Shown here: positions 47,821 through 63,649 of the stretch, piece after piece
How positions within the stretch are numbered: the stretch's first letter is position 1
Layout: each line of letters opens with the position of its first letter
NCBI RefSeq assembly: GCF_003991155.1
Contig: NZ_CP031295.1
Origin: Escherichia coli
GTDB taxonomy: Bacteria; Pseudomonadota; Gammaproteobacteria; Enterobacterales; Enterobacteriaceae
Length of the DNA: 64,000 nucleotides
Strand: one strand, 5' to 3'
The notes under the pieces: model-generated
Told to the model about the DNA's origin: nothing
Databases searched by the model: none
What the model saw: only the letters and a program-made list of their open reading frames with translations
Position numbers and translations under genes: made by a program

Positions 47821-48144
47821 TTACCCATTTTTGCCAGCGGGTTCCGCAACATCTGTTTTACTGTTTACACAGCACTCTTCACGTAAGAATTCGATGATAG
47901 CTTCCAGTATTTCATATTGAGAGACGCACATGAGCGTTCGACTCTCCCGGTTTTGTGTGACGAGTCCTACTGATACCAGGGCTGAAATATGATGACTTAA
48001 CGTTGATGAAGGAATGCCAAGCTGCTTTTGCAATTCACCTACAGGTAAACCTTGTTCTCCAGCTTTTACAAGATGTTTGAATATGAACAAACGGGTCGGG
48101 TGACCCAGTTCTTTTAGAGCTTTAGCTACTTCTTCCAGTTGCAT
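47821..48144 (-). CDS. arsR: ArsR/SmtB-family metalloregulator
   Basis: 107 aa with HTH (PTRLFIFKHL...LPVGELQKQLGIPSSTLSHHISAL) and C-terminal cysteine pair. Confidence 0.65.
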   Translation of the reverse strand: MQLEEVAKALKELGHPTRLFIFKHLVKAGEQGLPVGELQKQLGIPSSTLSHHISALVSVGLVTQNRESRTLMCVSQYEILEAIIEFLREECCVNSKTDVAEPAGKNG

Positions 48145-48248
48145 GTGACAACCCTCTGCCTGATGATATTTCGATAATACCAGAAATATCTTGACTATAA
48201 TTATATTTCGATTATTCTAGAATAATAGATTCTGTCAAGAGGTTTAGT

Positions 48249-49620: not shown

Positions 49621-50238
49621 TTACCGTTCAGTTTTTTCGGTTGACGCGGACTGTTCCTGCATGGTTTTCATCTTTAGCTTCTGTTGTTCCCTTACTGCCA
49701 GCCAGCGTCTGGCATTCAGCGCATCGCATTCTGATACCTGACCTGCTGGTAGTCCATCCAGTCCATAACGAGGGATACCTGCGACAGCAGTACGCTGCAG
49801 ATATACCTGTCGGGTGGTGATGCAGGATATTGCACAGGACCATTCATCCAGTGTCAGTTCTGTCTCAGGGTGTTCTGTCAGGAATGCGGCAAAATCATTG
49901 GTTATGCCAATTTTCAGTGGAAGAAATCCTCCGCCTTCTGCGCGAAGATGGGGAAACAGAGACTTCACTTTTTCCACGCAATCGTGAGTAAATTCATGAG
50001 TCCAATGAGGCTGGCGTGGAAAACGGCGTCTTTTCTTTTTTTTCTTACAGGCAGGAGCATCAGGGGTATGAGTATCGACGGCAGGCGAACTGATCCCCTC
50101 AGAGACTGATTCTTCCATCTTTTCTGTCTCTGAACGTGCGATAACACCTGTTTTTTCAGATAAGGAAGGGGGTAAAAGAGTGCGACGTTTTTTCACCATA
50201 ATGATGGGTGTTTTCTTTTCTTCCTGATATTTCCCCAT
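49621..50238 (-). CDS. FinO/ProQ-domain RNA-binding protein (second FinO-family gene in window)
   Basis: Lys/Arg-rich N-terminus followed by FP..PLKIGI...YL...A.RYGLDG pattern shared with FinO/ProQ domain. Confidence 0.55.
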   Translation of the reverse strand: MGKYQEEKKTPIIMVKKRRTLLPPSLSEKTGVIARSETEKMEESVSEGISSPAVDTHTPDAPACKKKKKRRRFPRQPHWTHEFTHDCVEKVKSLFPHLRAEGGGFLPLKIGITNDFAAFLTEHPETELTLDEWSCAISCITTRQVYLQRTAVAGIPRYGLDGLPAGQVSECDALNARRWLAVREQQKLKMKTMQEQSASTEKTER

Positions 50239-50525
50239 AAAAACCTCTACGATGTGTTCTTATATAATAATATATATCATATTTTCACGATTAACATAAT
50301 ATCTTCGTTAAGAAAACAACAGAGCAAAATTTGTTTTTTTTTGACAGGCATGAAATGAGCCAGCATAATTATATTAATTATTATCCCAAATGAGTTTTTG
50401 TATTTGCTCATTCGGGATGGTTGGATATTTTAAGTTATATCTACTGTATCATTCTCAGGTAATCGTTCCATTAAATCAGAAACTACGGGCTGTAACCAGT
50501 CAGTGACTTCACTCACATACTGATG

Positions 50526-51992
50526 TCATTCGGGATGCCTGGAGGCCAGATCCATCACTCGTGTTAACCCGGACGGACGATCAATGCCCAATTTAGTTAA
50601 AATATTCGAGATATAATTATGAGCATCAAGTTCAACTCTGATATCCCTTGCTGCTTCGATTATTTCTAAATATTCGCCACCCAATCCGTCCAGTGGGACA
50701 TTTGTAATAAGATAATGAATGTATTGTTCAGGCTTAACCCCATTTGGGAGATTAAATTGTTTTACTTTTCCTTCCGCTGCCGCTTTTAACTCATAAGTTC
50801 GTGATTCTGTGCCGGTGAAAACTTTATCACGAGCAGTTTTCTTTTCATTTTCTGTGGAATATTTATCGCCATCAAGAATATAAAGTTTACCAGATAGATT
50901 GTCACCACGAATAAGGGTACTGGCAAGTAGAGTGAATGCGTTTGAAGCTGCGCCAAATTTAAATATTTTTACATATTTGCTGGCCTTAAGTGAAGAACAT
51001 ATTTTATTTATTATGGCAACAGCTAAGTCATCTTCTACATATATTTCAATAGGCGTCGTTGATTCACCTGTTAATCTGTTTATAGCATCAGGTTTTGTTT
51101 CTTCAAATGAATAACTACGGCCTTGAATGTTTACGACGTGTCTTATATTTATCTTGTCTGATAAAGTGGTTATCATTTCTCTATGGGTAGTAAAGATGAT
51201 TTGTTTGTTTTTATCTTTGGCATGAGATGATATGACTTCTATTAACTTTTTCAATGCTTCGTCATGCAACAATAAATCTAATTCATCAATTAATATTAAG
51301 GCGTTCTTGTCCGCTTTCAATATTGTTTCCAGAATTAAAAATATCTTTTGCTCTCCTGCGCTCATACTCAATGATGAGTAGGCCAGTCCCCCTGACTCAA
51401 CTCCAATCAATATTTTTCCATTGGGTTGTTGATGCTGATTGAAACTTGTGTATGGTTTATTAAGTATATAGGAGGCGTAATGAAGAATGTTTGTTATTAA
51501 ATCATTACTGACACTGCTGGTTTCATACTGAATATTATTCTTTTTTTCTGATTCTATTATAGGAACACATTTATCAATGCCAAGATAGTAAACTTCTCTT
51601 AAAGGACGACGAGCATAAATCTGAATCCATCGTGAGCCTCGAATATCTGCTTTTCCATAATTTTTCAATTCATTTTCAATCATTACCCCATCTTTACGAT
51701 AAGTTAAATTTACAATGAAGTCACTGCCGTTCCATTCAGCATGTGGGCTGCGTGGAAAAAAATGCATTAACCGATGGTCTTCACCGGGGAAACCTTCTTC
51801 AGGCATGTATATGCTTGCTATAGCATGGAGTATTGTTGATTTTCCGCTTCCATTTGGACCTAAAATTGCGGTTAACGCATGAGGTTTAAAAATAATCTCG
51901 TTTAATCCATTTATACATTTTAGTTTGTTAATTTTAATGGAGTTCAAGACTTGACCAGTAATGGTTTTTTTATTTTTTTCTGCCATTTTCAA
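50526..51992 (-). CDS. ABC-type ATPase fused to TOPRIM/DUF4435-like domain (OLD-family or fused PARIS-like candidate)
   Basis: Walker A GPNGSGKST, signature-like LSMSAGEQK, Walker B LILIDELDLLLHDE, H-loop TTH; C-terminal VEDD ... LYILDGDK consistent with TOPRIM E and DxD. Confidence 0.6.
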   Translation of the reverse strand: MKMAEKNKKTITGQVLNSIKINKLKCINGLNEIIFKPHALTAILGPNGSGKSTILHAIASIYMPEEGFPGEDHRLMHFFPRSPHAEWNGSDFIVNLTYRKDGVMIENELKNYGKADIRGSRWIQIYARRPLREVYYLGIDKCVPIIESEKKNNIQYETSSVSNDLITNILHYASYILNKPYTSFNQHQQPNGKILIGVESGGLAYSSLSMSAGEQKIFLILETILKADKNALILIDELDLLLHDEALKKLIEVISSHAKDKNKQIIFTTHREMITTLSDKINIRHVVNIQGRSYSFEETKPDAINRLTGESTTPIEIYVEDDLAVAIINKICSSLKASKYVKIFKFGAASNAFTLLASTLIRGDNLSGKLYILDGDKYSTENEKKTARDKVFTGTESRTYELKAAAEGKVKQFNLPNGVKPEQYIHYLITNVPLDGLGGEYLEIIEAARDIRVELDAHNYISNILTKLGIDRPSGLTRVMDLASRHPE

Positions 51993-52248
51993 ATCCTAGC
52001 ATTATGTTGGGGGGATTCACCATGTAATTCAGAAACATATAACTGTGAACAGGGGATATATCAAATCCTTTTAATATTCTATTTGGCACAGTATTCTACA
52101 TCAGGCCTCTTTTATGCTACAGACTTTTTGAGATGTCTGTAATTTTAGACTTAATGTTATGACTGATCATATCTCCTATCCACTGGTGGCGCAGGAAAGT
52201 TAACCAGCTGCCACCATGGGATGATGTGTAAACCGTGCTGGTATGTTT

Positions 52249-52839
52249 TTACGGGGTGACGCTTTCATTAACCTGTACACGAACCTCCATTCCGGCATCG
52301 TGACAGGCCTGCAGCCACTGCGCCACTTCCAGCGGATCGCCCTCCAGGCGTACCACCCTGCCTTCTTTATTCCATAACTGCAGACAGGTGCTGCCGTCGA
52401 GACGTACCACAAAATCCCCACGGCAGGCCTGATACGTTATGCCGTTCAGCTGCACCGCCAGATCAGTGGCAGAAGTGCCGTCTGCGGGCAGACCTGCTGC
52501 CGGGACCAGCGGCAGTACGACGACTTCTGCCGCACGCTGTTCTGCCCGGAGGCGGTCCTGTTCTGCCAGCAGCAGAGGCTGTGCCACGGCCCGGCCGGCG
52601 TCCGTCAGCTCGACAGCCAGCTGCAGATTCGGGGCGCGCAGGGTACGCAGCCAGCCGGCATCCTCCAGACGACGGCAGGAGGCGCGCAGGTTTGGCCCGT
52701 AGACCGGGGCTTCCCCGCTTCGCTCCAGCACCCGTTCCAGGTCCCGCGTCAGCACGGGGCCCGGCCGTTTTTCATCAAGCGCAGCCAGCACAATCAGCAC
52801 TCTCCGCTGCAGTGGCGACGGTCGGCGGCTCTGGGTCAT
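52249..52839 (-). CDS. Hypothetical protein with possible N-terminal winged-helix domain (GC-rich)
   Basis: 196-aa ORF; start overlaps upstream gene stop (TAATG); family not recognised. Confidence 0.35.
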   Translation of the reverse strand: MTQSRRPSPLQRRVLIVLAALDEKRPGPVLTRDLERVLERSGEAPVYGPNLRASCRRLEDAGWLRTLRAPNLQLAVELTDAGRAVAQPLLLAEQDRLRAEQRAAEVVVLPLVPAAGLPADGTSATDLAVQLNGITYQACRGDFVVRLDGSTCLQLWNKEGRVVRLEGDPLEVAQWLQACHDAGMEVRVQVNESVTP

Positions 52840-53096
52840 TACCTGTCATCCTCCGGCCAGATGAGGTTTCTGAGGCGCTGAAAGTCGGCGTCAATGAGCT
52901 CCTGTCTCTTTATGGCATTCATTGAGGCATAGCCATTTATGGCCAGTTCATGCCAGAAGATCAGCACGGCTCCGGCTTTGGCTGACTCGCAGAGATAAAT
53001 CGCGCCCTGGCTGTCCAGATTGCATTCCCGGATGCGTTTTTCCGCAAACCGGGTCAGTTGTTCATAGCTGAGTGAAAACACCCTTTCTTCATCCAT
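52839..53096 (-). CDS. Hypothetical small protein, first gene of two-gene cassette
   Basis: 85-aa ORF translationally coupled to 52249-52839. Confidence 0.3.
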   Translation of the reverse strand: MDEERVFSLSYEQLTRFAEKRIRECNLDSQGAIYLCESAKAGAVLIFWHELAINGYASMNAIKRQELIDADFQRLRNLIWPEDDR

Positions 53097-53449
53097 CCTG
53101 CACGCTCCATCTGATAATGTACTGACAGGTAAAAATAATATCCTGCATGATTTGTGTGCTCATGATTTCTGATAATATCAGATATTGTTTTATCATCAAT
53201 GATGAAAACCATATCTGATATGATTTTATATATATTTCTTAATTATCATATCATTTGCGTCTTTTCTGCCGCGCAGATCCAGTTTCCGGCTAAGTCGGAT
53301 CGACCTAATCTTTGTTTCTGATATGAACACCTCGGAGAGGTGTAAGCAATGGTATAAACGAAATGTATTATGTATCTGCATCACAGCATGCGGGCACATT
53401 TTGCGGAAGGATATGAATCCCCCCGGAATAACTGGCAAAGGACAGATAA

Positions 53450-55588
53450 ATGGACATTGAAATACGCCACTGCAATAACATCGTACGAGCACATATCACC
53501 CTCACTGCCGATAAACTGAACATTAAGTTTGCGCCAAATGGTACTGGAAAAAGTACGCTGTCACGGGCCATAAGCTGTGCGGCGCGGGACGACATTCAGG
53601 GACTACAGGCACTGATGCCCTTCCGGCTGCGCGGAGAAAACCCCGATAGCACCGGGCCCATTGTCATCGGTGCTGACGGGATTGGGGACGTGATGTGCTT
53701 CAACGAGGAGTACGTCAGTCAGTTTACGTTCCAACCGGACGAGCTCATCAGTGATAGCTTTAATATTCTTATCCGCAATCAAGCCCATGCGGAAAGAGAG
53801 CGTGAAATAGAAGAAATGACGCAAAAGATCCGGGCTGTTTTCACGGATCACACTGAGCTGAACTCTCTGATAGACCATCTACAGGAACTCAGTAATGCTT
53901 TCAGATCAACCAGTTCCGGGATTTCACGTTCTTCAACCGGCATGAGAGGTCTGTCAGGCGGAAATAAAATACACCACATTCCGGCTGGTCTTGAGAACTA
54001 TCAACCCTACATCCGCAGTGAACGCCGCGTGGAATGGATTGACTGGCAGACAAAGGGACTCGAGTTTTCGCCCCTTTCGGATGGCTGCTGTCCGTTCTGT
54101 ACCGGTGATATCACGGGAAAGGAAGCACAAATTCGCCAAGTCAGAGAGGAATACGATAAATCCACCATTAAAAACCTGACCGCTATCATCAGACTGGTGG
54201 AAAACCTCGGTAATTACCTGACGGAGAGCGCCAGAGAACGCCTTCTGGCCATTACTATGCTTCAGAACGGTCCGGAAGCCGAACATATCGAGTACCTAGT
54301 GGCGTTGAAACGCCAGACCGATACGCTGACAGAGAAACTCACTGCGCTGAGAGGCCTGAATGTTTTCAGCCTGCAGGAACAGCAGAACGTTCGGGAGGTG
54401 CTCACTGCCAGGTTGATTGACCTGCAGTTCTTCCCTGATCTGCAATCCGAACTCATGCAGGGGATCACCGACAGACTGAACGCGGCCCTTATGGACCTGA
54501 TAAACCTTGCCGGACCGCTGCAGGGAAAAATTAACCGGCACCGGGACAGCATGATCCGGCTGATCGCACAGCACAAAACAAACATCAATAATTTCCTCAC
54601 TTATGCAGGCTATAAATACAGGGTGGATATAGCCGGCGAGGGAGAGCAGAGAAAACTCAGGCTACGACACATAGATTTTGACGGGTACGTCAGCGGCGGT
54701 AGCCAGCATCTCAGCTATGGAGAACGGAACGCCTTTGCGATTGTGTTATTCATGTATGAATGCCTGTCAAAAAACCCGGGACTGATTATCCTTGATGATC
54801 CCATATCTTCTTTTGATAAAAACAAGAAGTTTGCCATTCTTGAAATGCTGTTCAGACGTGCAAGTGGTGAATGCCTGAAGAACCGGACTGTACTTATGCT
54901 GACGCATGACGTGGAGCCTGTGATTGACACGCTGAAGTCAGTCAGAAGGTTGTTCAGTAATCAGGTGACCGCCTCCTGCCTGCGCCTGTCTGCTGGAGTC
55001 ATAGAAGAATTACCTGTTAACGACGGCGATATCATGACATTCATGCAGATCTGCAAATCCATCACCGCGTCAGCAGACTGTGAGGAGATCATTAAGCTCA
55101 TCTATCTTCGTCGCTACTTTGAAATCGTTGACGAACGTGGTGATGCTTATCAGCTTCTATCCAATCTATTCCATCGACGCGTCGTCCCGCTGGATTATCG
55201 CGAGCCTGCCGCTGCGGGCTCGGGCTATCCCAAAATGGCTCCTGAGAAAATTCAGCAGGCCTTGCGGGATATCCGGGAGTATGTGGACAGTTTTGATTAC
55301 CCGCGACTTCAGGCTCTCGTCAGCAGCCCAGATGAAATAAAAAACCTGTACCGTCGCTGTCGTAACGGCTATGAAAAACTGCAGGTATTCCGTTTACTGG
55401 AACTGGATCAGGACCATCCGGTAATACGAAAATTCGTTAACGAAACGTACCACATTGAAAATGAGTTCATCTGTCAACTAGATCCGTCCAGATTCGATCT
55501 CATCCCGGAGTACGTGATTATGGAATGTGACAAGCTCATCGCCCTGCCACCGGCAGCAAACCAGAGCTCGGTTGCCCGTATCGCTTGA
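53450..55588 (+). CDS. Rad50/SMC-like ABC ATPase with CxxC hook and C-terminal extension (RloC/PrrC-like anticodon-nuclease candidate)
   Basis: Walker A APNGTGKST at N-terminus, CCPFC ~200 aa in, signature LSYGERNAF, Walker B LIILDDP, H-loop LMLTHD ~430-480, then ~230 aa C-terminal region. Confidence 0.5.
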   Translation: MDIEIRHCNNIVRAHITLTADKLNIKFAPNGTGKSTLSRAISCAARDDIQGLQALMPFRLRGENPDSTGPIVIGADGIGDVMCFNEEYVSQFTFQPDELISDSFNILIRNQAHAEREREIEEMTQKIRAVFTDHTELNSLIDHLQELSNAFRSTSSGISRSSTGMRGLSGGNKIHHIPAGLENYQPYIRSERRVEWIDWQTKGLEFSPLSDGCCPFCTGDITGKEAQIRQVREEYDKSTIKNLTAIIRLVENLGNYLTESARERLLAITMLQNGPEAEHIEYLVALKRQTDTLTEKLTALRGLNVFSLQEQQNVREVLTARLIDLQFFPDLQSELMQGITDRLNAALMDLINLAGPLQGKINRHRDSMIRLIAQHKTNINNFLTYAGYKYRVDIAGEGEQRKLRLRHIDFDGYVSGGSQHLSYGERNAFAIVLFMYECLSKNPGLIILDDPISSFDKNKKFAILEMLFRRASGECLKNRTVLMLTHDVEPVIDTLKSVRRLFSNQVTASCLRLSAGVIEELPVNDGDIMTFMQICKSITASADCEEIIKLIYLRRYFEIVDERGDAYQLLSNLFHRRVVPLDYREPAAAGSGYPKMAPEKIQQALRDIREYVDSFDYPRLQALVSSPDEIKNLYRRCRNGYEKLQVFRLLELDQDHPVIRKFVNETYHIENEFICQLDPSRFDLIPEYVIMECDKLIALPPAANQSSVARIA

Positions 55589-55749
55589 GCCACTGTTTTT
55601 GCCGCCGGAAGATAGGCTTTAGCTCCCTGATAGTCTGATCTTCGAAGATACCCTACAGTTTAGGACCGCTTACTGTAGATATCTGTTAAAACAGCCCGTA
55701 TACGGGCTGTTTCTTGGTGCCCTTATCTCCTGACTTTGAAAAGAGTGTC

Positions 55750-56166
55750 TTACTTCACCCAGTCTTCCAGCACCAGGTCAGGCACTCGCTCAAATTCTCT
55801 TGTATTATTCGTTACCAGTATCGCCCCGGCGGCGATGGCGTGCCCGGCAATCGCCGTGTCGTTCGGGCCGATCGGCGTCCCGGCCAGCCGCAGTGCCACT
55901 TTAATCTTCGTGGTGGCGTCTACTGCGGCGCGATCCCAGGGCAGGATGGCATCGAGGCGGGCGCAGAATTCATCGACCAGTTGGACGTGACGTGGTGAGG
56001 CCTTTGGGCCGGTAGCCCCGAAGCGCATTTCAGAGTAGGTGATGGCCGAGACCACTATACGGTGGCCGCGTAGCACCGCCTGCTCCAGACGCTTCAGGAC
56101 GGCTTCTGGCTGTTCACGCATGATGAACGAGCAGATACAGGTATCAAGCATATAAGTCTTGTTCAC
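55750..56166 (-). CDS. vapC: VapC/VagD PIN-domain toxin
   Basis: 138 aa MNKTYMLDTCICSFIMREQ...; overlaps antitoxin gene. Confidence 0.85.
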   Translation of the reverse strand: MNKTYMLDTCICSFIMREQPEAVLKRLEQAVLRGHRIVVSAITYSEMRFGATGPKASPRHVQLVDEFCARLDAILPWDRAAVDATTKIKVALRLAGTPIGPNDTAIAGHAIAAGAILVTNNTREFERVPDLVLEDWVK

Positions 56167-56393
56167 AGGTTAAATCGCCCTTCGTCGCTGACAACATCCT
56201 CGCGCTCCGCCATAAAATCTGGATCGGCTTTTTCGTACTCTAGGAATGATCCCCAGGTTGGCCGGACGGGGCGCAGGATGATGCTGTCCCCTTCCCGGAC
56301 GATCTCGAGCTCGCTCACCCCCTCAAAATCCAGATCACGAGGCAGACGGATGGCGCGGTTGTTGCCATTTTTGAATATCGATACGGTTCTCAT
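56163..56393 (-). CDS. vapB: VapB/VagC antitoxin
   Basis: 76-aa ORF upstream of PIN toxin with 4-nt overlap. Confidence 0.8.
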   Translation of the reverse strand: MRTVSIFKNGNNRAIRLPRDLDFEGVSELEIVREGDSIILRPVRPTWGSFLEYEKADPDFMAEREDVVSDEGRFNL

Positions 56394-56409
56394 GTTTTTT
56401 CTCTCCCGA

Positions 56410-56545
56410 GCATATGGATATGTGAAACATATCCGGAATATTCAAAGCACCGGGTGTGTGCATATGTTTAGTATAGGCAGATGTGTGGCATATGTATAGC
56501 GGTAGCATATGTAGATGCCAGGCATATGTTTAGCATATCTCTATT
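56410..56545 (+). repeat. Array of 5-6 direct repeats with CATATG core in the divergent vapB / 56689-gene promoter region
   Basis: gcatatgg, catatcc, gcatatgtttag, gcatatgtatag, gcatatgtagat, gcatatgtttag seen at ~17-28 bp spacing. Confidence 0.45.
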
Positions 56546-56688
56546 TCTTTCTTTTTTATCGGAGATCCGAAAAAAGGTTAAGTCTGATCTTAATGAAATT
56601 ACATGGAATTTGAGTGATATCCCTTACCCCACATCTCCAACGTGCTATCTATAAAGGTTGATACATCTCACTTAGTCCGGAGGTTGTT

Positions 56689-56979
56689 ATGAGCGTCAAA
56701 ATCACAGGTTTAGACAAAATGCAGAAACAGCTAAAAGAGGTTGAGAGAGCAACAGAGGCATTAAACGGAAGTTATGATGTCCACTTCGATGCTAACGATC
56801 CTGTCAGCATTGAGAACGCGATTCAGGAAGCCTATTCCATGGTGTACGAACGCGCTTCTGGTTATGCCACTAATCCGATGGTCAGCCCATTAATCGAACA
56901 CATGAAAGAAAATCTGCGCCAACAGATTCTGGACAGAGCAGAACAACAAAGACAGGAGAGCGGGCAGGATGGCAATTGA
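56689..56979 (+). CDS. Hypothetical small protein (96 aa), first gene of operon with TIR-like protein
   Basis: ORF with 11-nt overlap onto downstream gene start; no recognised motif. Confidence 0.35.
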   Translation: MSVKITGLDKMQKQLKEVERATEALNGSYDVHFDANDPVSIENAIQEAYSMVYERASGYATNPMVSPLIEHMKENLRQQILDRAEQQRQESGQDGN

Positions 56980-57868
56980 TATCTTTCAGTCACTTAAAAA
57001 TTGCGTATTCGACCTTCAGCGCGCTGACGTTCAGAACTATCAGCAACCTCTTAAGCAATTGGCCCGGCTCTTGAACTCAGAGAATCTGCAGTCAGTTAAT
57101 GCACATCTGACCCGCAATGTTGAACTTGATACCTTTCTGGCCAGGAGTGAAGATACTGAATCCAGCATGGCTGGTTCCGCTGTTCTACAGTGGCCTGATG
57201 AGCCCGCTGATATTTTGGGCCTGAAGTTGCTGCTGATCGAGAAAATGGCAGACGATAACAATTTTTCCTTTAATTTCTGTCATACATTTTTCTATGATCG
57301 AAACATTATTGAATCCATTCGAAAATTCACGTCGTCATTAGTTGCCCCGTTCGTGCGCGATTACCAGTTGTATGTGGAAAACCAACACGATCCTGAGCCT
57401 GCAGTGTTTCGGCCGGTTTCCCGAAAAATTTTTATTGTTCATGGCCATGATAATGATGCCCTTCAGTCTGTTGCCCGTTTTATATCCCGGATAGGTCTTG
57501 AGGAAATCATTCTTTCAGAACGTCCTGACGGCTCCAGGACGATTATCGAGAAATTTGAAGCAGAGTCAGGGGATGTCAGTTTTGCCATCGTGCTGATGAC
57601 GCCCGACGATAGCGGCAGTGCTCTGGCATCTGAAAGCACACGTCTCCGCGCACGCCAGAATGTCCTGTATGAGCTCGGATATTTCGCCGGGAAGCTTGGA
57701 CGCGGGAAAGTACTTGTACTCAGGAAGGGAGATATCGAAATCCCTTCAGATCTTGCCGGGGTTCTCTATACCGAGCTTGATGAGCATGGTGGATGGAAAC
57801 GCAAACTGCTGAGTGAGCTTGCGTATGCCGGTGTTCCTTTTGACAAGGATAAAGCATTAAGCGCCTGA
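56969..57868 (+). CDS. Protein with C-terminal TIR-like nucleotide-binding domain
   Basis: C-terminal ~140 aa with KIFIVHGHD ... FAIVLMTPDD ... NVLYELGYFAGKLGRGKV pattern resembling bacterial TIR-like domains; N-terminal ~150 aa unrecognised; RBS aggagag upstream. Confidence 0.5.
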   Translation: MAIDIFQSLKNCVFDLQRADVQNYQQPLKQLARLLNSENLQSVNAHLTRNVELDTFLARSEDTESSMAGSAVLQWPDEPADILGLKLLLIEKMADDNNFSFNFCHTFFYDRNIIESIRKFTSSLVAPFVRDYQLYVENQHDPEPAVFRPVSRKIFIVHGHDNDALQSVARFISRIGLEEIILSERPDGSRTIIEKFEAESGDVSFAIVLMTPDDSGSALASESTRLRARQNVLYELGYFAGKLGRGKVLVLRKGDIEIPSDLAGVLYTELDEHGGWKRKLLSELAYAGVPFDKDKALSA

Positions 57869-57885
57869 TCTCCTTCATTTAGTAA

Positions 57886-57915
57886 GAAAAAGGCCGCTAA
57901 GCGGCCTTAATTTTT
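57886..57915. terminator. Bidirectional rho-independent terminator between convergent genes
   Basis: aaaaaggccgc taa gcggccttaattttt: GC stem flanked by A-run and T-run. Confidence 0.6.
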
Positions 57916-57917
57916 GG

Positions 57918-60143
57918 TCAGTCGTCATTTTCCAGCGCTGTTTTGAGCGCTTCCTGCTCCGGAGTCAGCTCGTTGCCGGACAGCATAACCTTCAACTTCT
58001 CTTCGACTGCTGGCCAGTCATCAAAGAACGGACTGACCTGGTCACGCGCAATCCGGCGATATGCCCCTCGGTGGGAGCTGAAGACACTGGTCTGTAATCG
58101 TATCAACAGGTTAACAAGGCCTTCATCAGTGGTAGTAACTTCTCTGACCCATTGCTTCACGGTTTCACCTGAACTCATGTCTCTCCAGGCGTAGAGATAC
58201 CCGAGAAGAGACTTGCGCAGGAGAAGCTGTTGCTGAAGTTCTGGTTGATTCATACGTTCCGCAAACCTGTCACGCAACCGTTCCGTAATATCGCGACTGA
58301 AAAGAGCGTCTGAAGGCGAAGGTACTGCATTCTGAGCAAGTCCATGTTCCCAGATAAGATCCCGCATAAAATCGGCTATCCAGAACGGCGAAGCACCCGT
58401 AACGATCAGTTTTTCCATAAGCGTGATCGTTCTGGTCTCATCAATATCCTGCATATGCTTCAGCAGATGCCGTACAACCTCATTAATGGCCATTTCACGC
58501 AGGGAAAACCATGGGTTACGGATACTGAAGCGAGTGCTCACCTCATCGGTGTGATCGAAGAAAAAATGAACCAGTCCTGCGCACTCTTCGAAATTACGTT
58601 CTCTTATCAGGCCTGGAGTCAGTCTGCTCAGTATATGTTCAAACCAGGTTCCGGACAGACTGCCCACACTGTTGATTTTTGAGAGCAGCAATTCAGAAAG
58701 CTGCTGCTGTTTTTCCGATACGCCAGCCTGTTCAAAAAGCTGTCTGAAGAATTCAGGTGGCAGAACATTCTGTGGTGAGGAGAAGGCAAAATAATATCGC
58801 CAGTGCGTCAGGCTGCTGAGTCGTTTACCGGTCGTCTGGATATGACGAAAATCCTCACTGACGGGCTCAAAAAGATTCAGATATTCATCATTATGTCCAC
58901 TGATACCTGGGATCCAGTCTGCAAGTGTCAGAAACGAGTCTGCATTTGATGCCCTGAACGTCTTCATACATCTGATAAGCCCCTCCCGGAAGTCTGCTTT
59001 CTCTCCGTCAGAAAGCATACCCTGACCGGTTTCAATCACGGACCGTTCTGTCAGGTAATGCTCTGTCCAGTCATACAGAGCCGGGTTTGTCACCCGTATA
59101 AGCTGAAGCAGGCACAAATCAGGGAAATAAACAAAATCCCGCATCCCCGGATAAAGAAAAATCAGGGAATTAATGGCCTGATGGATTTCCCGTGGCGTCG
59201 AAAGTGCGGCACCATAGGTATCAGTCACCGCGATGAGATCCCTTACCATTCCAGAGTCTGGCGGTTGATTATTAATTTGCTGATATAGAGCCTCAGCCCG
59301 CTGGCGAAATTCATTACGTAAATCAAAGGCTTCAGGTCGGGGTAATTTAAAACTAAGCTGAATGATTTTCTGGAGATAACGGCTGCCATCTTCGATATTC
59401 AGCGCATGTTCAACGGCATGAGTGATAATCTGCCTGTCATAACAGAGAATATGGGTAAAGCGGGGCAGATCGGCTACTGCACGCACAAGCCTGAACACTT
59501 CCGCCACCTGGGATGGCTCCAGTCGGTCCAGATCATCCATGACAACAATGAACTTCAGATCCAGACTCACCAGTTGTCCTGCAATTTCAGCCCGAAGCTT
59601 TGTCGTGGTTTTCTGATCAACAGCCAGACGGCTGTCTGAAAATACCTTTATTCCGCCTGCTATCCAGTTAATAATGCTGGAAAACTGTCCGATATATTGA
59701 ACCAGTGGAAGGACGCGCGATGAAGTATCCTGAGCATACTCAATCACTTTTTGAGCTTCCGGTGACAACAGATATTTACGCCAGAGCTTTTTGAAGCCCT
59801 TCGGGGGATAGCGTATTTCCATTTCCTGCTGGATAACCGTGGCAACCGGAAGAAAGAGCGCTTCAACCGGACTGCCGCCACTCAGCCAGGGAGAAATATG
59901 CAGCACATGCGTGTGAGCATCTTTTTTCAGGGCAAGGTTTCTCAGGATCAGATTAAGGAGGCTTGTTTTACCCGATCCCCATGCACCTTCTATTCCGACA
60001 ACATTTGAAGCCTCCAGAGGAAGAGTAAGGATGGAACGGGATATATTTTCTGCGATATTACCGAAACCGTATCGATCCTCAGGTACATCTTCAACTGCCG
60101 CATCAAGCCCTTTCTGGTTCCACAGCTGCCTCAGTATCTTCAT
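57918..60143 (-). CDS. KAP-family P-loop NTPase
   Basis: 741 aa; Walker A GIEGAWGSGKTSLLNLI, Walker B FIVVMDDLDRLEP, large helical C-terminal region. Confidence 0.7.
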   Translation of the reverse strand: MKILRQLWNQKGLDAAVEDVPEDRYGFGNIAENISRSILTLPLEASNVVGIEGAWGSGKTSLLNLILRNLALKKDAHTHVLHISPWLSGGSPVEALFLPVATVIQQEMEIRYPPKGFKKLWRKYLLSPEAQKVIEYAQDTSSRVLPLVQYIGQFSSIINWIAGGIKVFSDSRLAVDQKTTTKLRAEIAGQLVSLDLKFIVVMDDLDRLEPSQVAEVFRLVRAVADLPRFTHILCYDRQIITHAVEHALNIEDGSRYLQKIIQLSFKLPRPEAFDLRNEFRQRAEALYQQINNQPPDSGMVRDLIAVTDTYGAALSTPREIHQAINSLIFLYPGMRDFVYFPDLCLLQLIRVTNPALYDWTEHYLTERSVIETGQGMLSDGEKADFREGLIRCMKTFRASNADSFLTLADWIPGISGHNDEYLNLFEPVSEDFRHIQTTGKRLSSLTHWRYYFAFSSPQNVLPPEFFRQLFEQAGVSEKQQQLSELLLSKINSVGSLSGTWFEHILSRLTPGLIRERNFEECAGLVHFFFDHTDEVSTRFSIRNPWFSLREMAINEVVRHLLKHMQDIDETRTITLMEKLIVTGASPFWIADFMRDLIWEHGLAQNAVPSPSDALFSRDITERLRDRFAERMNQPELQQQLLLRKSLLGYLYAWRDMSSGETVKQWVREVTTTDEGLVNLLIRLQTSVFSSHRGAYRRIARDQVSPFFDDWPAVEEKLKVMLSGNELTPEQEALKTALENDD

Positions 60144-60144
60144 A

Positions 60145-61236
60145 TTACAGATCTCCGTACAGGCAGCGCAGCCCGGTCAGGGCCTCCGCCAGCGGGCCTT
60201 CTTGACACCGCGTGGCGAGCTCCCGGACCAGCGTCTCAAAGGCCTCCGCCGGCATAAAAATCCGCAGGCCGTCTATCCCGAAGAAGCCCTCCGGCGTGAC
60301 GTTTCCGGGCGGGGAGAACATCACTCGCTCCCCCTGGTGACCGTGCGTCAGGGCTTCCGGATGCCGGGCATACAGCGTGAACAGGCCCAGCAGTTCGGAT
60401 AACGCTTCCCAGCCGTACGGCACCACGAAGTCCTGGCCGGTGATCAGCAGGTGCAGACGGGGTGTGGTGTACCAGGCCCCCGGGCGTTCTCCGGGGTGCT
60501 GGCCGTCAACGCGGATCTCCAGGCGCAGCGTGCCGGCCTCAATGGTTTCCGTGACGGCAGAAATAACCGGGCGCAGCTCCTGTGCCAGCGTTCTTGCCTG
60601 TTCTGTGTTCCAGTCCAGGCCGCGCAGCATCAACGGGAAAACAGCTTTCAGCCGCGGCAGGGTGAAGATTTCTGCCAGCACCGCGTCCGGCACCTCCGCC
60701 AGGCCAAAACAGTCGCTCTCGAGCGGACGCAGGAGGTGTTCGGCATACATCTGATCCACCACGGGGCGCAGCGCTGCCCGGAAGGCTTCAAACTCTTCCG
60801 TCCAGTTTTTCCCGGCCAGGCGGAAAATCCCCTTCAGGTAGTGACCGTCCACAGGGCGATCGTGCTCCACCTGCCAGGCCAGCAGGTTGCCAGTGATGTC
60901 CAGCAGCGTGTCCAGGGCCGGGAGTGTGGCCAGCCTATTATGCCCGCGCAGGAAGGCCTCCCTGACGTGAACCAGGACAAAGCGCAGTTCGTCGCGGGAG
61001 AGCGCTGACGTGCCGAAGGTCTGGCCCAGAATGATATGCCGGTACAGCTGCCGGACCGTGGCCTCCGGATCGGCAATGAGCTGAAAATACCCGTCACCGG
61101 GCGCGACCGTTTTCAGGCCGTCATCGAGGAAGCGTTCGGCTAGGGCGTTGACCGAAGTATTTTCCCGACCGGCACGCGTTTTCAGCGCCTCGATAAGTTT
61201 TTTGTGAAAACGCAGGTTAAGCTGGCTTAGCATCAT
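60145..61236 (-). CDS. Protein with N-terminal ribbon-helix-helix (RHH) motif and large unknown C-terminal domain
   Basis: 363 aa; N-terminal LNLRFHKKLIEALKTRAGRENTSVNALAERFL resembles Arc/MetJ/CopG RHH; stop is 1 nt from KAP NTPase start. Confidence 0.5.
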   Translation of the reverse strand: MMLSQLNLRFHKKLIEALKTRAGRENTSVNALAERFLDDGLKTVAPGDGYFQLIADPEATVRQLYRHIILGQTFGTSALSRDELRFVLVHVREAFLRGHNRLATLPALDTLLDITGNLLAWQVEHDRPVDGHYLKGIFRLAGKNWTEEFEAFRAALRPVVDQMYAEHLLRPLESDCFGLAEVPDAVLAEIFTLPRLKAVFPLMLRGLDWNTEQARTLAQELRPVISAVTETIEAGTLRLEIRVDGQHPGERPGAWYTTPRLHLLITGQDFVVPYGWEALSELLGLFTLYARHPEALTHGHQGERVMFSPPGNVTPEGFFGIDGLRIFMPAEAFETLVRELATRCQEGPLAEALTGLRCLYGDL

Positions 61237-61777
61237 CGATCCTTTAATGTTTGTTTTGTTCTTAATGCTAACCTAGCATTTTATTATTAGCTATTAATCA
61301 GTTTTTTAGTTTTTGAAAATTGTGATGCTTCTAAAATTGAGGATTTTAATGCTACAACAATGCCTGCCTCTTCTTATTTCTCCGGAGATCCGAAAACCCC
61401 AGGTTACGGATCTTCCTCTCCCCCCACACAACGCCACCTCCTGTCAGCACAACATGTGGTATCTCATTCAGCTGCTCATGACACTATATGTTGTGTCATC
61501 TCCCTGACCTGTGATGCGCCGCGCAGGGGCGGAAAACAGCGATATGATTATTTTCTCAGCGTGGTACACTTCCGGAAAGTTGTGATATTCCGGAAAGTCG
61601 GATCTGACGGAAACGGCTCTCCGGTAATTTAACTGCGTTTCTATATGGCTACTTATTATTTCAGTATGTGAAATTCATTTTTTGTGAAAGTCACTGTTCT
61701 CAACAGAGTGGCACTCATCTGGCGATGATTGAGGTGTGGTAAAATTGCACGGCTAACTATTCAACTGAGGAAAGGAC

Positions 61778-62128
61778 ATGTTTACTGCATTCAATGAGAG
61801 AAATGATTTCAGTTATGCTTTTGAAAAAATCCGTAATGCGATTTCCGCGCCAGGAGAAAATAATCTTTATGCTGCAACAGAATTAGGTCTTGGCATTCTG
61901 CTCCGTAAATACGAGCAGTTTCGCCAGGAACTGGATGCGGCCGGTGAGCTGGGAAACTGGGAATATGATCTCGATACCTACAATCACTGTATTGCGGTGC
62001 TGCAACGTTACTTCACCGGCAATCCATCCGGGCTCACAGAACGTGATGCCCGGATTTACAGCCATTACCTGCAGACTGAGCACAAAGGCTTTGTGAAGCT
62101 GGCTGAAGAACTGGCTGCCGACCGCTGA
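61778..62128 (+). CDS. Hypothetical protein (116 aa)
   Basis: ORF with upstream promoter-like AT-rich region; no recognised motif. Confidence 0.3.
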   Translation: MFTAFNERNDFSYAFEKIRNAISAPGENNLYAATELGLGILLRKYEQFRQELDAAGELGNWEYDLDTYNHCIAVLQRYFTGNPSGLTERDARIYSHYLQTEHKGFVKLAEELAADR

Positions 62129-62171
62129 ATACATACAGAAGGCGGGATTTCTCAACAATAAAGGAATAAAC

Positions 62172-62861
62172 ATGGCTGACTGGTTTATTGCGACCGAAGG
62201 CGTGAAGGTGGTGAAGGACAGCGCCAGTCTGGGGCCGCAGATAATTACAGCTGTATCGACCATCGCATCTGCTGTCGGAGCGGTGTTCCTTACTCACCAC
62301 TTCACACTCAGACGTGAGGAGAGAACTGCAGCAGCGAAGCTGGCCAGCGAGCGTCTTTACATTAGTACAGAGCTGGTTTTTTTACTTGAGCGATTTGCGC
62401 AGCGTTGCGCTCCAGCAGCAACAGCAACTGTGGAGCACGATCAGGATGGCAGAGGAGAAGCTGAGTTCTTATTACCGGAAATCGATTATTCCCCGGTATC
62501 TGGTAACTGGCGCTCCCTTCCTTCTGGCCTGATGTATAGGCTCAGCGAACTCTCTGTTCTCAGCTACGAAGCTGTCGTGTGTGTAGATAATGTGTTTGTT
62601 GAAGATACTCCTTATGGTGGAGCGGGTGAATATAGTTTGCATAAAAACGCAGCTATGTTGGGAGTAAAAGCACTGCGGTTATCACGAGAACTGAGAATGT
62701 TATGTGGCCTCCCTCTGCACGGCCTTTCCGATACACTATCGCCAACGAGGTTGGTATTGTTGAAAGCCAGAGGTAAAACACTCCAAAAGGAGTACGAAAT
62801 GGTAAAGAAGTCTAAAAAGACCGAGCAAGAGATTGAGGATTTCATAAAGGGGACATCATGA
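62172..62861 (+). CDS. Hypothetical protein with N-terminal TM helix (229 aa)
   Basis: Hydrophobic segment QIITAVSTIASAVGAVFL; stop overlaps resD start. Confidence 0.3.
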   Translation: MADWFIATEGVKVVKDSASLGPQIITAVSTIASAVGAVFLTHHFTLRREERTAAAKLASERLYISTELVFLLERFAQRCAPAATATVEHDQDGRGEAEFLLPEIDYSPVSGNWRSLPSGLMYRLSELSVLSYEAVVCVDNVFVEDTPYGGAGEYSLHKNAAMLGVKALRLSRELRMLCGLPLHGLSDTLSPTRLVLLKARGKTLQKEYEMVKKSKKTEQEIEDFIKGTS

Positions 62862-63649
62862 GTGGCCCACAATTGCTTTCCCTGCCAGGTTCTTTTTTAA
62901 CGCCTCCGGCAACATTACCTGTTGCCATTGATTACCCGGCTGCGCTGGCACTACGTCAGATGGCACTTGTGCAGGACGAATTACCAAAATATCTGTTGGC
63001 GCCGGAGATCAGCGCCCTGCTCCACTATGTACCGGATCTGCACCGCAAAATGTTGCTGGCCACCCTGTGGAACACGGGCGCACGTATAAACGAAGCGCTG
63101 GCGCTGACGCGGGGAGATTTTTCTCTGGCGCCGCCATATCCGTTCGTACAGCTGGCCACGCTCAAACAACGGACTGAAAAAGCGACCAGAACGGCAGGCC
63201 GTGTCCCTGCTGGCAGTCAGGTGCATCGCCTGGTTCCCCTGTCCGATACACAATACGTCAGCCAACTGCAGATGATGGTGGCCACGCTGAAAATCCCACT
63301 GGAGCGCAGAAACAAACGAACCGGAAGAATGGAGAAGGCGCGCATCTGGGGAATCACCGACCGCACAGTTCGCACCTGGCTGAATGAAGCTGTAGAGGCC
63401 GCTGCGGCCGACGGCGTGACGTTCTCTGTTCCGGTTACCCCACATACTTTCCGCCATTCCTACGCGATGCATATGCTGTATGCTGGTATTCCGCTGAAGG
63501 TGCTGCAGAGCCTGATGGGGCACAAGTCGATTAGTTCGACAGAGGTGTACACGAAGGTGTTTGCGCTGGATGTGGCTGCACGGCACCGGGTGCAGTTTTC
63601 GATGCCTGAGTCCGATGCTGTCACAATGCTGAAAAACAGACACGCATAA
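62858..63649 (+). CDS. resD: ResD-like tyrosine site-specific recombinase (plasmid multimer resolvase)
   Basis: 263 aa with catalytic-domain HTFRHSYAMHMLYAGIPLKVLQSLMGHKSISSTEVYTKV (R..H..Y). Confidence 0.8.
   Translation: MSGPQLLSLPGSFLTPPATLPVAIDYPAALALRQMALVQDELPKYLLAPEISALLHYVPDLHRKMLLATLWNTGARINEALALTRGDFSLAPPYPFVQLATLKQRTEKATRTAGRVPAGSQVHRLVPLSDTQYVSQLQMMVATLKIPLERRNKRTGRMEKARIWGITDRTVRTWLNEAVEAAAADGVTFSVPVTPHTFRHSYAMHMLYAGIPLKVLQSLMGHKSISSTEVYTKVFALDVAARHRVQFSMPESDAVTMLKNRHA

Follow-up and report, generated by a model that had tools for sequence, protein, structure and literature searches.

Between a resistance mosaic and the tyrosine recombinase gene resD, the window analyzed here (a 64,000-nt stretch of Escherichia coli contig NZ_CP031295.1) carries a run of genes reminiscent of a defense island, which raises the question of where this block begins and ends and how it was assembled. 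A sequence-only reading had treated 49621-62861 as one accessory island, a mosaic of independently acquired modules rather than plasmid backbone. The observation behind it is confirmed: all the open reading frames it named were found in the window and agree with the annotation of identical plasmids, the strand switches follow from the list of reading frames, and the GC content jumps from 65% in ydeA to 35% in the neighboring ibfA and reaches 63% in pifC, against a window mean of 52%. The DNA is also accessory rather than universal backbone: among at least 5000 PLSDB records with a match, only 150 reach 80% coverage. The interpretation given in that reading is partly supported.

Comparison with related plasmids moved both edges. 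From 47340 to 61659 the window forms a single alignment with the IncI1 plasmid R64 (14,385 columns, 98.8% identity), in which 49500-61000 differs by only three mismatches and one 2-bp indel; proQ to pifC is nearly the same in both, and nine protein accessions are shared exactly. The alignment identifies 47340-61401, with the same genes in the same order, as the variable “Delta” gene set of R64, which in this case resides on a ColBM-type IncFIB/FIC plasmid. Sampei et al. reportedly placed this set between repZ and rfsF in 2010. It has been known in that position for decades, and IncI1 gene sets switch at rfsF, R64 holding the phage inhibition genes ibfA and pifA (PMC8004404). On the left, IS26 copies in comparison locus L006 match up to 47339/47340, and homology to R64 begins at 47340, which corresponds to position 4510 of the R64 locus (L007), within arsH (4180-4830); an IS26 transposase gene is annotated at the equivalent position of an identical plasmid. 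Relative to R64, the permease region accounts for 81 mismatches (48500-49499 bins) and lacks 54 bp at 48744-48748. On the right, R64 and the window are identical as far as 61401, and from 61402 to 61864 the identity is with p40EC-1, which indicates a crossover between R64-like and ColBM-IncF-like DNA at 61401/61402, in the center of the rfsF spacer beside resD, so that the right half of rfsF and all DNA rightward of it are those of the IncF host. The accessory character of 49621-62861 stands, whereas its limits do not: the same foreign block extends leftward to 47340, and the genes at 61778-62861 make up a different unit, namely the resD operon leader. Besides the IS26 cut, the copy here departs from R64 in an ibfA stop codon (W487*) and in an intact pifC, as opposed to a 2-bp frameshift in the R64 reference sequence.

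Table. Features of the accessory block and its flanks in window coordinates.
Feature	Position	Strand	Remarks
Accessory block	47340-61401		Gene order: arsR, permease, proQ/fopA-like, ibfA, ydeA, ydfA, PDC-S06, vapBC, 96-aa/PDC-S35 pair, pifA, pifC
IS26	46520..47339	+	Truncates R64-like block on the left; 46520 inferred from 820-bp IS26 length, 47339 supported by alignment
arsH 5' remnant	47340..47660	-	Cut by IS26; first R64-like DNA; assigned by coordinate mapping
ArsR/SmtB-family regulator	47821..48144	-	WP_001175594.1, same accession as in R64
Permease, 359 aa	48249..49328	+	Sole strongly diverged patch relative to R64
ProQ/FinO-domain RNA-binding protein gene	49621..50238	-	Last in ydfA-ydeA-ibfA-proQ operon; accession identical to R64
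ibfA, ABC-ATPase-TOPRIM, HEC-04 family	50526..51986	-	PADLOC HEC-04 E = 4e-42; ATPase-Toprim E = 4e-21
ydeA (196 aa, 65% GC) and ydfA (85 aa)	52249..53096	-	Conserved left anchor of cassette array
rfsF-like site 1	53275..53301	+	AGATCCA GTTTCCGGCTAAGT CGGATC; pattern search; left boundary of cassette 2
PDC-S06 candidate defense ATPase, 712 aa, “CR006” family	53450..55588	+	PADLOC E = 5e-286; Pfam AAA_13 as two split halves
vapBC (vagCD-type) toxin-antitoxin pair	55750..56393	-	From annotation; genes overlap by 4 bp
rfsF-like site 2	56563..56589	+	AGATCCG AAAAAAGGTTAAGT CTGATC; pattern search; boundary of cassettes 2 and 3
96-aa gene overlapping 299-aa PDC-S35 gene	56689..57868	+	PADLOC PDC-S35 E = 2e-65
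pifC-pifA operon	57918..61236	-	pifA 57918-60143, pifC 60145-61236; PADLOC PifA E = 3e-290
Conserved noncoding segment (rfsF and upstream region of resD operon)	61381..61659	+	Common to IncF, IncI, and Klebsiella plasmids
Canonical rfsF core	61386..61412	+	AGATCCG AAAACCCCAGGTTA CGGATC; spacer contains the 61401/61402 crossover
116-aa and 229-aa genes	61778..62861	+	Variable leader slot of resD operon; 229-aa protein PADLOC PDC-S67 E = 1e-17
resD, tyrosine recombinase acting at rfsF	62858..63649	+	91% amino acid identity to F ResD; annotated as site-specific integrase

The organizing principle of the locus, missed by the sequence-only reading, is the presence of rfsF-like recombination sites at the module boundaries. 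A pattern built from canonical rfsF alone (AGATCCG-N14-CGGATC, one mismatch allowed) occurs at exactly three loci in the 64 kb, against 0.01 expected, and these coincide with breakpoints derived independently by plasmid comparison. The rightmost starts at 61386, to which R64 nt 43,620 maps, a position called rfsF in PMC8004404. At site 1, alignments with other plasmids lose homology at 53290-53293, and an empty counterpart (L009) fuses the left arm and half-spacer of site 1 to the canonical right arm, with ydfA directly abutting rfsF. In site 2, BLAST detected the rfsF left arm as an exact 14-bp copy, and homology to plasmid F starts at 56563; in its empty counterpart (L010) vapBC directly abuts rfsF, and L013 versus F provides a further empty/occupied pair.

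These comparisons delineate two cargo units, each flanked by rfsF-like sites that point the same way: PDC-S06 with vapBC, and the 96-aa/PDC-S35 pair with pifA and pifC. In a small, nonrandom sample of 18 loci picked from BLAST hit lists, the alignments show that both units recur in other plasmids behind different neighbors, with homology breaking inside the 14-nt spacer, and that unoccupied sites exist. The PDC-S06/vapBC cassette follows ydfA in the window, in R64, and in a pESI-like plasmid (L016), or a CBASS cassette in L018, where the match covers exactly 53293-56582. The pif cassette is preceded by vapBC (window and R64), by a RepFIB-side gene (F), or by a DUF3800 cassette (pK2044), and a cassette running from an HEC-04-like gene to CBASS lies after DUF3800 (L015) or vapBC (L016). 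Further cargo left of rfsF in other plasmids includes Tmn, a ThsB-like TIR protein with PDC-M50A, and a CBASS cyclase with a 4TM effector. The modules are also distributed independently, with at least 80% of modules 1 to 4 covered in 681, 657, 869, and 323 PLSDB records, respectively. The notion of independently acquired modules holds for this distribution, but not for a one-by-one arrival in this plasmid, since 47340-61401 came as one R64-like block. Nor does the GC-rich cassette mark foreign DNA: ydeA/ydfA is the anchor with the widest conservation at this locus, and 52176-53290 matches IncI-gamma/K1 plasmids with different cargo at 95.5% and 89.7% identity.

The comparison extends to a classic locus. 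The DNA holding the 96-aa/299-aa pair, pifA, and pifC is F plasmid DNA, 98.1% identical over 56563-61645 and likewise immediately left of rfsF; the PifA and PifC accessions are identical to those of F, and the 299-aa protein is identical in F and R64. The unit follows the RepFIB region in F but vapBC here, and to its right F has ccdAB-resD-repE, whereas the 116- and 229-aa genes replace ccdAB here. Judged from its flanking sites, the pif locus of F is itself an rfsF-bounded cassette, and as far as we found, the literature searched holds no earlier mention of the site pair. On the resD side, the segment 61381-61659 is 81 to 96% identical in all 13 compared loci carrying rfsF; module 4 (61381-62917) matches 4765 PLSDB records in part, many among those listed being limited to this 279-bp segment. 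The leader slot beyond it is taken by ccdAB in F; IncI plasmids have a 137-aa gene there, and L006 has one of 168 aa. Here, the 229-aa gene overlaps the start of resD by 4 bp; neither leader protein has a Pfam match, and an N-terminal hydrophobic segment of the 229-aa protein is a possible transmembrane helix.

The best explanation of these data, and in our judgment a probable one, is a cassette array built by ResD/rfsF recombination, together with a layered defense function. ResD-catalyzed recombination between rfsF-type sites would insert, excise, and swap cargo units, so that, over time, an array resembling those of integron cassettes or of Acinetobacter pdif modules may grow beside resD. 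Such recombination between an R64-like and an IncF plasmid could also have brought the whole array here; indeed, rfsF-ResD has been proposed as a route of DNA acquisition between IncI1, IncF, and IncR plasmids (PMC9412624).

Alternatively, the mosaic might stem from ordinary homologous recombination and random indels, with the AGATCCG-N14-CGGATC repeats serving as ResD operators of the flanking divergent promoters. The miniF D protein (ResD) acts at rfsF as a transcriptional repressor as well as in dimer resolution (1986 miniF literature), and all three sites sit in promoter regions between divergently transcribed genes, so they could partly be operators. The right arms of internal sites, moreover, deviate from the canonical one (CTGATC at site 2, CGGAAC in F), and these degenerate sites could thus be inactive relics. 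However, the sequence shared between sites is confined to the two arms (7 bp and 6 bp) and some of the spacer, which is too short for efficient RecA-dependent exchange; at least seven independent comparisons place the breakpoints within a few bases of one spacer position, and every occupied site has an exact empty counterpart. We regard this alternative as unlikely. It is very improbable that IS26 or another transposition event brought the block and that the rfsF junction is coincidental. An IS26 terminus does form the left end, and the resistance mosaic upstream of it is rich in IS26 (the same 27-mers from inside IS26 recur at 37065, 44664, and 46971), but neither the right junction nor the intervals between modules show an insertion sequence or transposon end, this junction falls in the center of a recombinase core site, and unrelated cargo in 12 other loci uses the same one. 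While ResD/rfsF recombination remains the favored route for the array, no circular form of a cassette was seen, and rfsF-like sites are absent from the resD leader slot and from the variable slot to the left of ydeA, which holds ibfA or other genes, so some of the variation here arises otherwise.

What, then, does the array do? Defense annotation bore out the island-like content, with strong PADLOC matches for four block proteins (HEC-04, PDC-S06, PDC-S35, and PifA) and a more modest one, to PDC-S67, for the 229-aa protein outside the block. Experimental support exists for PifA/PifC and IbfA (HEC-04 family); PDC-S06, PDC-S35 (TIR), and PDC-S67 are only computational candidates. Both ABC ATPases had been credited with nuclease-like extensions, which the TOPRIM-type residues E318 and D372-x-D374 and the ATPase-Toprim match support for the 486-aa IbfA; its Walker A motif lies at 43-50. 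By comparison of translations, this copy lacks 32 residues of the 518-aa R64 IbfA and carries L386R. In contrast, the C-terminal domain of the 712-aa PDC-S06 has no relative among solved structures and no detectable nuclease relative. PDC-S06, for which 3643 homologues were found, combines a Rad50/SMC-like ABC head (the AF2 model, pLDDT 81, matches SMC and Rad50 heads) with a coiled-coil insert bearing an invariant C214-P-x-C217 and this family-specific, all-helical domain. VapC, a PIN-domain RNase, matches solved tRNA(fMet)-specific VapC structures (E = 3e-27). The C-terminal domain of the 299-aa protein is a CAP12/Pycsar-type TIR, a predicted NADase effector (Pfam CAP12-PCTIR_TIR at residues 153-271, E = 8e-37; solved Cap12, E = 5e-5). 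Of the proposed RHH and KAP NTPase operon, the KAP-type NTPase PifA stood, whereas an RHH fold of PifC found no confirmation in Pfam (sole match DUF6364, E = 0.0015). PifA excludes phage T7, and PifC is its repressor and also a fertility inhibitor of rival plasmids (PMC5696584, PMC12632615, PMC8004404). The ProQ/FinO protein, 70% identical to its IncI-gamma/K1 homologue and with a weak NCBIfam ProQ match, probably corresponds to FopA, the RNA chaperone of IncI1 plasmids; its operon was demonstrated by RT-PCR in pUA1135 (PMC12111858, the source of the ydeA and ydfA names). YdeA and YdfA have no family match in Pfam, NCBIfam, or PADLOC, and for these three proteins there is no evidence of a defense role.

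Taken together, the array may give layered protection to the host-plasmid pair, partly as shown elsewhere: PifA would abort T7-type infections, PifC would also block conjugation of rival IncP and IncW plasmids, and IbfA would interfere with T5/BF23- and P22-type phages, its copy here being truncated. Among the candidates, the Rad50-like PDC-S06, which bears a zinc-hook motif, and the TIR protein PDC-S35 are probably abortive-infection sensor-effectors, and VapBC may stabilize the region or add an abortive response. One could instead view the block as mainly a plasmid maintenance and competition region, combining addiction (vapBC, a stability toxin-antitoxin pair, and the 116/229-aa pair in the slot occupied by ccdAB in F), replication control (by the FopA-like protein, as FopA binds the Inc replication-control RNA; bioRxiv 10.1101/2020.06.22.164913), and fertility inhibition (PifC inhibits IncP and IncW conjugation; PMC5696584), with phage exclusion as a side effect; phage restriction is possibly not the primary function of PifA (PMC12632615). 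Yet deletion of IbfA restores phage growth (PMC12111858), and HEC-04 defense depends on ATPase and TOPRIM residues (bioRxiv 10.1101/2024.01.29.577857). Given also the PADLOC matches and the bona fide defense systems Tmn and CBASS, plus the ThsB-like TIR protein, as alternative cargo at rfsF, we hold a maintenance role with incidental phage exclusion to be quite unlikely.

The island itself is ordinary, long known from R64 and not new; what seems undescribed in the searchable literature is its cassette architecture, whose rfsF core bears, to our knowledge, no resemblance to the dif or cer consensus. As in integrons, a tyrosine recombinase gene adjoins the primary site, cassettes ending in related sites are stacked with a common orientation, a given cassette turns up in different orders, and the cargo is enriched in defense genes, which chromosomal integrons also store (bioRxiv 10.1101/2024.07.02.601686). 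In contrast to integrons, however, the recombinase is ResD, not IntI, and has its primary role in plasmid dimer resolution; in place of folded single-stranded attC there are short inverted repeats in double-stranded form; and the cassettes are large (3 to 6 kb where measured), with two convergent transcription units and their own promoters. In Acinetobacter pdif (XerC/XerD site) modules (PMC7399989), a dimer resolution system likewise appears co-opted to shuffle modules bounded by resolution sites, often carrying toxin-antitoxin or adaptive genes, but recombinase family member and site differ, orientation is alternating rather than direct, and the cargo is resistance rather than defense. P2/P4 prophage and satellite hotspots (PMC9122126) and chromosomal defense islands (PMC10121019) share the conserved flanks around highly variable defense systems, whereas the rfsF hotspot resides on conjugative plasmids and displays a site-specific recombination signature at its module boundaries.

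The stretch from 47340 to 61659 is 98.8% identical to the IncI1 plasmid R64 (NC_005014.1) in one 14.4-kb alignment, and between 49500 and 61000 the two differ by three mismatches and one 2-bp indel, no more; nine of the encoded proteins carry the same RefSeq accession as in R64. The portion encoding the 96-aa protein, the 299-aa protein, PifA, and PifC shares 98.1% identity with plasmid F as well, and the 299-aa, PifA, and PifC proteins are the same in both (reference records, NC_002483 for F and NC_005014 for R64). In the IncI1 literature, the region from repZ to rfsF is the “Delta” gene set, whose recognized phage-inhibition genes are ibfA and pifA, and which is swapped for the “Col” set of ColIb-P9 “at the rfsF site” (PMC8004404). 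Because it is nearly identical to the R64 Delta set, and in its pif part to F, the island is a long-known accessory and defense-rich block that was not assembled piecemeal in this plasmid. It was already part of R64 when that plasmid was originally isolated, and it includes two genes classically known as determinants of phage exclusion.

The sequence-only reading had proposed a defense island of independently acquired modules at 49621 to 62861. Every gene that it listed was found where it had been placed, in concordance with the RefSeq annotation of 100%-identical plasmids, and five PADLOC-recognized units, in addition to vapBC, lie within the 13 kb. Its view of the island as accessory, defense-like, and modular in origin holds, whereas its boundaries, the piecemeal acquisition in this plasmid (where the block is the long-known R64 region in one segment), and the meaning that it gave to the GC shifts do not. 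Conserved IncF backbone as the identity of the block was rejected after plasmid comparison in PLSDB.

On the left, position 49621 is no boundary: R64 homology continues to 47340, where it ends flush with an IS26 terminus and arsH is truncated. The resistance mosaic on this side of the island contains three IS26 copies, each marked by the same 27-mer (37065-37091, 44664-44690, and 46971-46997); two of them have minus-strand and one has plus-strand orientation. On the right, identity to R64 extends up to 61401 and gives way over 61402-61864 to identity with p40EC-1, an IncFIB/FIC colicin-BM plasmid with another cargo gene at the same place. This switch falls in the center of the inverted repeat AGATCCG-N14-CGGATC, and R64 coordinate 43,620, given for rfsF in PMC8004404, corresponds to window position 61386. 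The 116-aa and 229-aa genes at 61778-62861, which had been counted as part of the island, lie outside the R64-like block: they occupy the resD-operon leader, on the right side of rfsF, a slot taken up by ccdAB in F and by different small genes in IncI plasmids. The tyrosine recombinase encoded by resD, 1.4 kb to the right of rfsF, is 91% identical to ResD of F. The GC contrasts are genuine (ibfA 35%, ydeA 65%, and pifC 63%, versus 52% for the whole window), but the GC-rich ydeA/ydfA pair, read as a sign of foreign origin, is the conserved left anchor. Of the 108 mismatches between the block and R64, 81 fall in the permease gene, at 48500-49500, which also has a 54-bp deletion; the rest of the 14 kb is almost identical, and this patch looks like local recombination or gene conversion from a diverged allele. 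Upstream of pifC, in the pif operator region, the window is 9 bp shorter than both R64 and F at 61331, about 55 bp from rfsF on its left side.

A BLAST search of the rfsF segment against the island returned an exact 14-bp copy of the rfsF left arm at 56560-56573, where F homology starts. When we searched with a pattern derived from canonical rfsF alone, allowing one mismatch, three loci were found in the 64-kb window, compared with 0.01 expected by chance.

Canonical rfsF and the two rfsF-like sites of the window
Site	Window coordinates	Strand	Left arm	Spacer	Right arm
Site 1	53275-53301	+	AGATCCA	GTTTCCGGCTAAGT	CGGATC
Site 2	56563-56589	+	AGATCCG	AAAAAAGGTTAAGT	CTGATC
Canonical rfsF	61386-61412	+	AGATCCG	AAAACCCCAGGTTA	CGGATC

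All three sites share one orientation, with resD to their right, and they match the module boundaries derived earlier from plasmid comparison (53290-53293, 56563-56582, and 61401/2). The order is thus ydfA, site 1, the PDC-S06 gene (PDC-S denoting PADLOC candidate families) with vapBC, site 2, the 96-aa/PDC-S35 pair with pifA/pifC, rfsF, and the resD operon, with each cargo unit made up of two convergent transcription units. Within two mismatches, no further rfsF-like sites were found in the ibfA slot or the resD-leader slot. Two inverted repeats were also observed: a perfect 24-bp palindrome between the stop codons of the convergent PDC-S06 and vapC genes (55689-55712, an inverted BLAST self-match), which is probably a bidirectional terminator, and an inverted-repeat match upstream of ydfA just left of site 1 (53172-53224), conserved in IncI plasmids (comparison loci L004 and L009), which may serve the ydfA operon as an operator or promoter element.

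A primary site adjacent to the recombinase gene, together with site-bounded cargo units, is also present in F and in comparison loci L004, L005, L012, and L015 to L018. Excision and insertion of the cassettes by the recombinase would be reflected here in sequence footprints, namely, unoccupied sites and the recurrence of one cassette beside various neighbors. Empty sites were found for every occupied site: the right half of rfsF is directly fused to ydfA in pEC488-KPC-2 (CAGATCCGGTTTCCGGC/GGTTCAGGATCTTCC), to vapBC in the plasmid of E. coli 97-3250, and to the F left flank in p2017C-4173W12, where the junction reads AAGATCCGAAAAAAGGTA/GTCACGGATC as opposed to AAGATCCGAAAAAAGGTA/AAACCGGAAC in F. 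The left neighbor of the pif cassette is vapBC in the window and R64, a RepFIB-side gene in F, and a DUF3800 cassette in Klebsiella pneumoniae pK2044. Similarly, the PDC-S06/vapBC cassette lies behind ydfA in the window, R64, and the S. Infantis pESI-like plasmid and behind a CBASS cassette in NZ_CP020496.1, whose BLAST match covers exactly 53293-56582, while the cassette that begins with a HEC-04-like ATPase and extends to CBASS is found behind either DUF3800 or vapBC. In all cases, the left arm and about 9 to 10 nt of the spacer are kept by the left neighbor and the remainder by the cassette. Beyond the left arm, on its outer side, the sequence is variable; past the canonical right arm (CGGATCTTCCTCTCCCC...), on the other side, it is conserved in each of the 13 site-carrying loci. 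Since the stretches that the sites have in common are too short to support ordinary homologous recombination, we infer from these junctions that the exchange would be site specific and mediated by ResD at rfsF-like sites.

It has been suggested before that rfsF-ResD helps IncR and IncF plasmids acquire IncI1 DNA (PMC9412624). Our literature search, which had most subscription journals outside its reach, found no paper describing arrays of rfsF-bounded cassettes, and for an IncF/IncI defense hotspot or rfsF cassettes it returned partial precedents alone. Species-representative genomes scanned for canonical rfsF and its right flank yielded just three loci, of which one is clearly a fragment of an enterobacterial plasmid. 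Outside Enterobacterales, exact matches to AGATCCG-N14-CGGATCTTCCTC occur in Trinickia mobilis (L020, 6496-6522) and in a Bacteroidales metagenome-assembled genome (L021, 974-1000), the latter with a right flank (ttcctccctccgcc) similar to that of F; the site may have distant relatives there, or the matches may be due to chance or to mis-binned plasmid contigs.

The locus behaves as a defense hotspot, in that unrelated systems lie between conserved flanks and other systems occupy the same place in related replicons. Left of rfsF, and between conserved anchors where ydeA/ydfA is present, the alternative cargo comprises Tmn (PADLOC E = 0), a ThsB-like TIR protein with PDC-M50A, a CBASS cyclase with a 4TM effector, DUF4238 with an Abi protein, a RES-domain protein, DUF3800, and a 1039-aa protein; some plasmids are empty there, without any cargo. 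Tmn is the 1271-aa gene linked to a change of phage type in PMC8004404 and has been characterized in PMC13001434. The modules are independently distributed, with 681, 657, 869, and 323 PLSDB records covering at least 80% of modules 1, 2, 3, and 4, respectively, and the whole 15 kb is covered to at least 80% by 150 of the best-scoring 5000 records. For 61381-62917, 4765 records match, 323 of them over at least 80% of its length, and many of the listed matches comprise just the first ~280 bp, which is the rfsF segment.

The hypervirulence plasmid pK2044 (NZ_CP026012.1, 4982-11703) carries the same type of array, with vapBC, a DUF3800 cassette, and then a 96-aa/TIR/PifA cassette of about 86% identity; it has a perfect-armed rfsF-like site at 8124, and no pifC CDS is annotated. 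In the S. Infantis pESI-like megaplasmid (CP052834.1, 6275-15827), ydfA and PDC-S06/vapBC are followed by a 6.2-kb unit before rfsF, which contains a HEC-04-like ATPase, a PifC-like regulator with a 289-aa partner, and CBASS. This PifC-like/PDC-S64-like pair looks like a PifC/PifA analogue with another effector.

PifA (741 aa) matches the PADLOC PifA model over its full length (E = 3e-290), is the same protein as in F (WP_000698737.1), and is a KAP-type P-loop NTPase with a Walker A motif, GAWGSGKT, visible in the sequence. pifC (60145-61236) ends 1 bp before pifA in the same operon, and its product is again that of F (WP_000952217.1); for the ribbon-helix-helix fold attributed to it, Pfam offered a weak DUF6364 match and nothing else. 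According to literature cited in PMC12632615, T7 exclusion by PifA is set off by gp1.2 or gp10; PifC also inhibits conjugation of IncP and IncW plasmids (PMC5696584). In the R64 reference, two extra bases in pifC (L007 ~17828; window 60604) shift the frame, which is why PLSDB shows no pifC CDS for R64, while pifC of the window is intact and the same as in F.

The ibfA product matches HEC-04 (PADLOC E = 4e-42) and, over residues 210-403, the PADLOC model ATPase-Toprim_I-B. It contains the ABC ATPase motifs GPNGSGKS (43-50) and SAGEQK (at 209), in line with Pfam matches to AAA_21, AAA_23, and SMC_N. Pfam finds no TOPRIM domain; E318 and D372-G-D374 occupy positions matching E319, D375, and D377 of HEC-04. 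IbfA is not full length, as W487 (window 50526-50528) is replaced by a stop, with loss of the last 32 residues compared with the 518 aa in R64 and pUA1135; RefSeq lists a 486-aa product in identical plasmids, and the protein further differs from R64 by L386R. In pUA1135, a ydfA-ydeA-ibfA-proQ operon was shown by RT-PCR, and deletion of ibfA restores plating of a P22-like phage (PMC12111858). HEC-04, the family to which IbfA belongs, protects against T4 and T5, for which its Walker A and TOPRIM metal residues are required (bioRxiv 10.1101/2024.01.29.577857).

VapC is a PIN-domain toxin that matches solved tRNA(fMet)-specific VapC chains (E = 3e-27), and its gene overlaps the upstream antitoxin gene vapB by 4 bp; the RefSeq annotation is in agreement. 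The 712-aa ATPase next to this pair is PDC-S06 (PADLOC E = 5e-286), with Pfam AAA_13 matching both halves, and its family is both very large and highly conserved (3643 homologs at E <= 1e-10, about 55% identity across phyla). UniProt names the family “CR006 P-loop domain-containing protein.” As this name refers to CR006 of staphylococcal SCCmec type IVc, a recombinase-mobilized cassette element of Gram-positive bacteria, the same candidate gene is found on another cassette element. Whether the C-terminal domain of PDC-S06 could be a nuclease, of the RloC/PrrC type or another, was assessed with an alignment of 37 homologs, two AlphaFold models, and three fold searches. The model (pLDDT 81) shows a coiled-coil insert in a Rad50/SMC-like head, and it matches the heads of Rad50 and SMC with coiled coil; C214-P-x-C217, invariant in the 37 homologs, lies in a loop between its long helices. 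PDC-S06 resembles RloC in its ABC head of the AAA_13 type, its coiled-coil insert, and its CxxC zinc hook, but it does not fit the RloC/PrrC C-terminal catalytic triad Arg-x3-Glu-x36-52-His (PMC2610378). Membership in RloC was rejected on the misfit in triad spacing and on a C-terminal fold that matches nothing solved.

The 299-aa protein contains a TIR domain of the CAP12/Pycsar type (Pfam PF10137, E = 8e-37, residues 153-271) that matches solved Cap12 (E = 5e-5), and PADLOC assigns it to PDC-S35 (E = 2e-65). Its cassette encodes no CD-NTase or pyrimidine cyclase, the sole partner being the 96-aa protein, itself without a family match; because a cyclase partner is absent, we file the unit as PDC-S35 and not as CBASS or Pycsar. 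The 229-aa protein is PDC-S67-like (PADLOC E = 1e-17) with no other match, and its N-terminal hydrophobic segment is possibly a transmembrane helix; for this protein and ydeA, Pfam, NCBIfam, and PADLOC gave nothing usable. The literature search found no phage data for PDC-S06, PDC-S35, or the 229-aa protein. PDC-S06, PDC-S35 (present in F itself), and the 116/229-aa pair are flagged here as three widespread candidates.

While the island is already known, its apparent construction from rfsF-bounded cassettes is the main new point. We see an even chance that enterobacterial IncF, IncI, and Klebsiella virulence plasmids share an integron-like platform in which ResD, the recombinase of dimer resolution, captures, stacks, and exchanges self-contained defense cassettes at rfsF, the textbook pif locus of F included. 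If ResD/rfsF does move these cassettes, F, R64, pESI-like plasmids, and pK2044, all very common resistance or virulence plasmids, would share a dedicated route for swapping antiphage genes, and this would go some way toward explaining the variation of phage type and phage susceptibility with plasmid content. It would also provide a simple rule for finding new defense genes, namely, whatever sits between two rfsF-like sites. The architecture is plausibly a new variant of the integron or pdif theme. In keeping with an integron-like or pdif-like array, the recombinase gene lies beside the primary site, and each of the cargo units is bounded by a related site in the same orientation.
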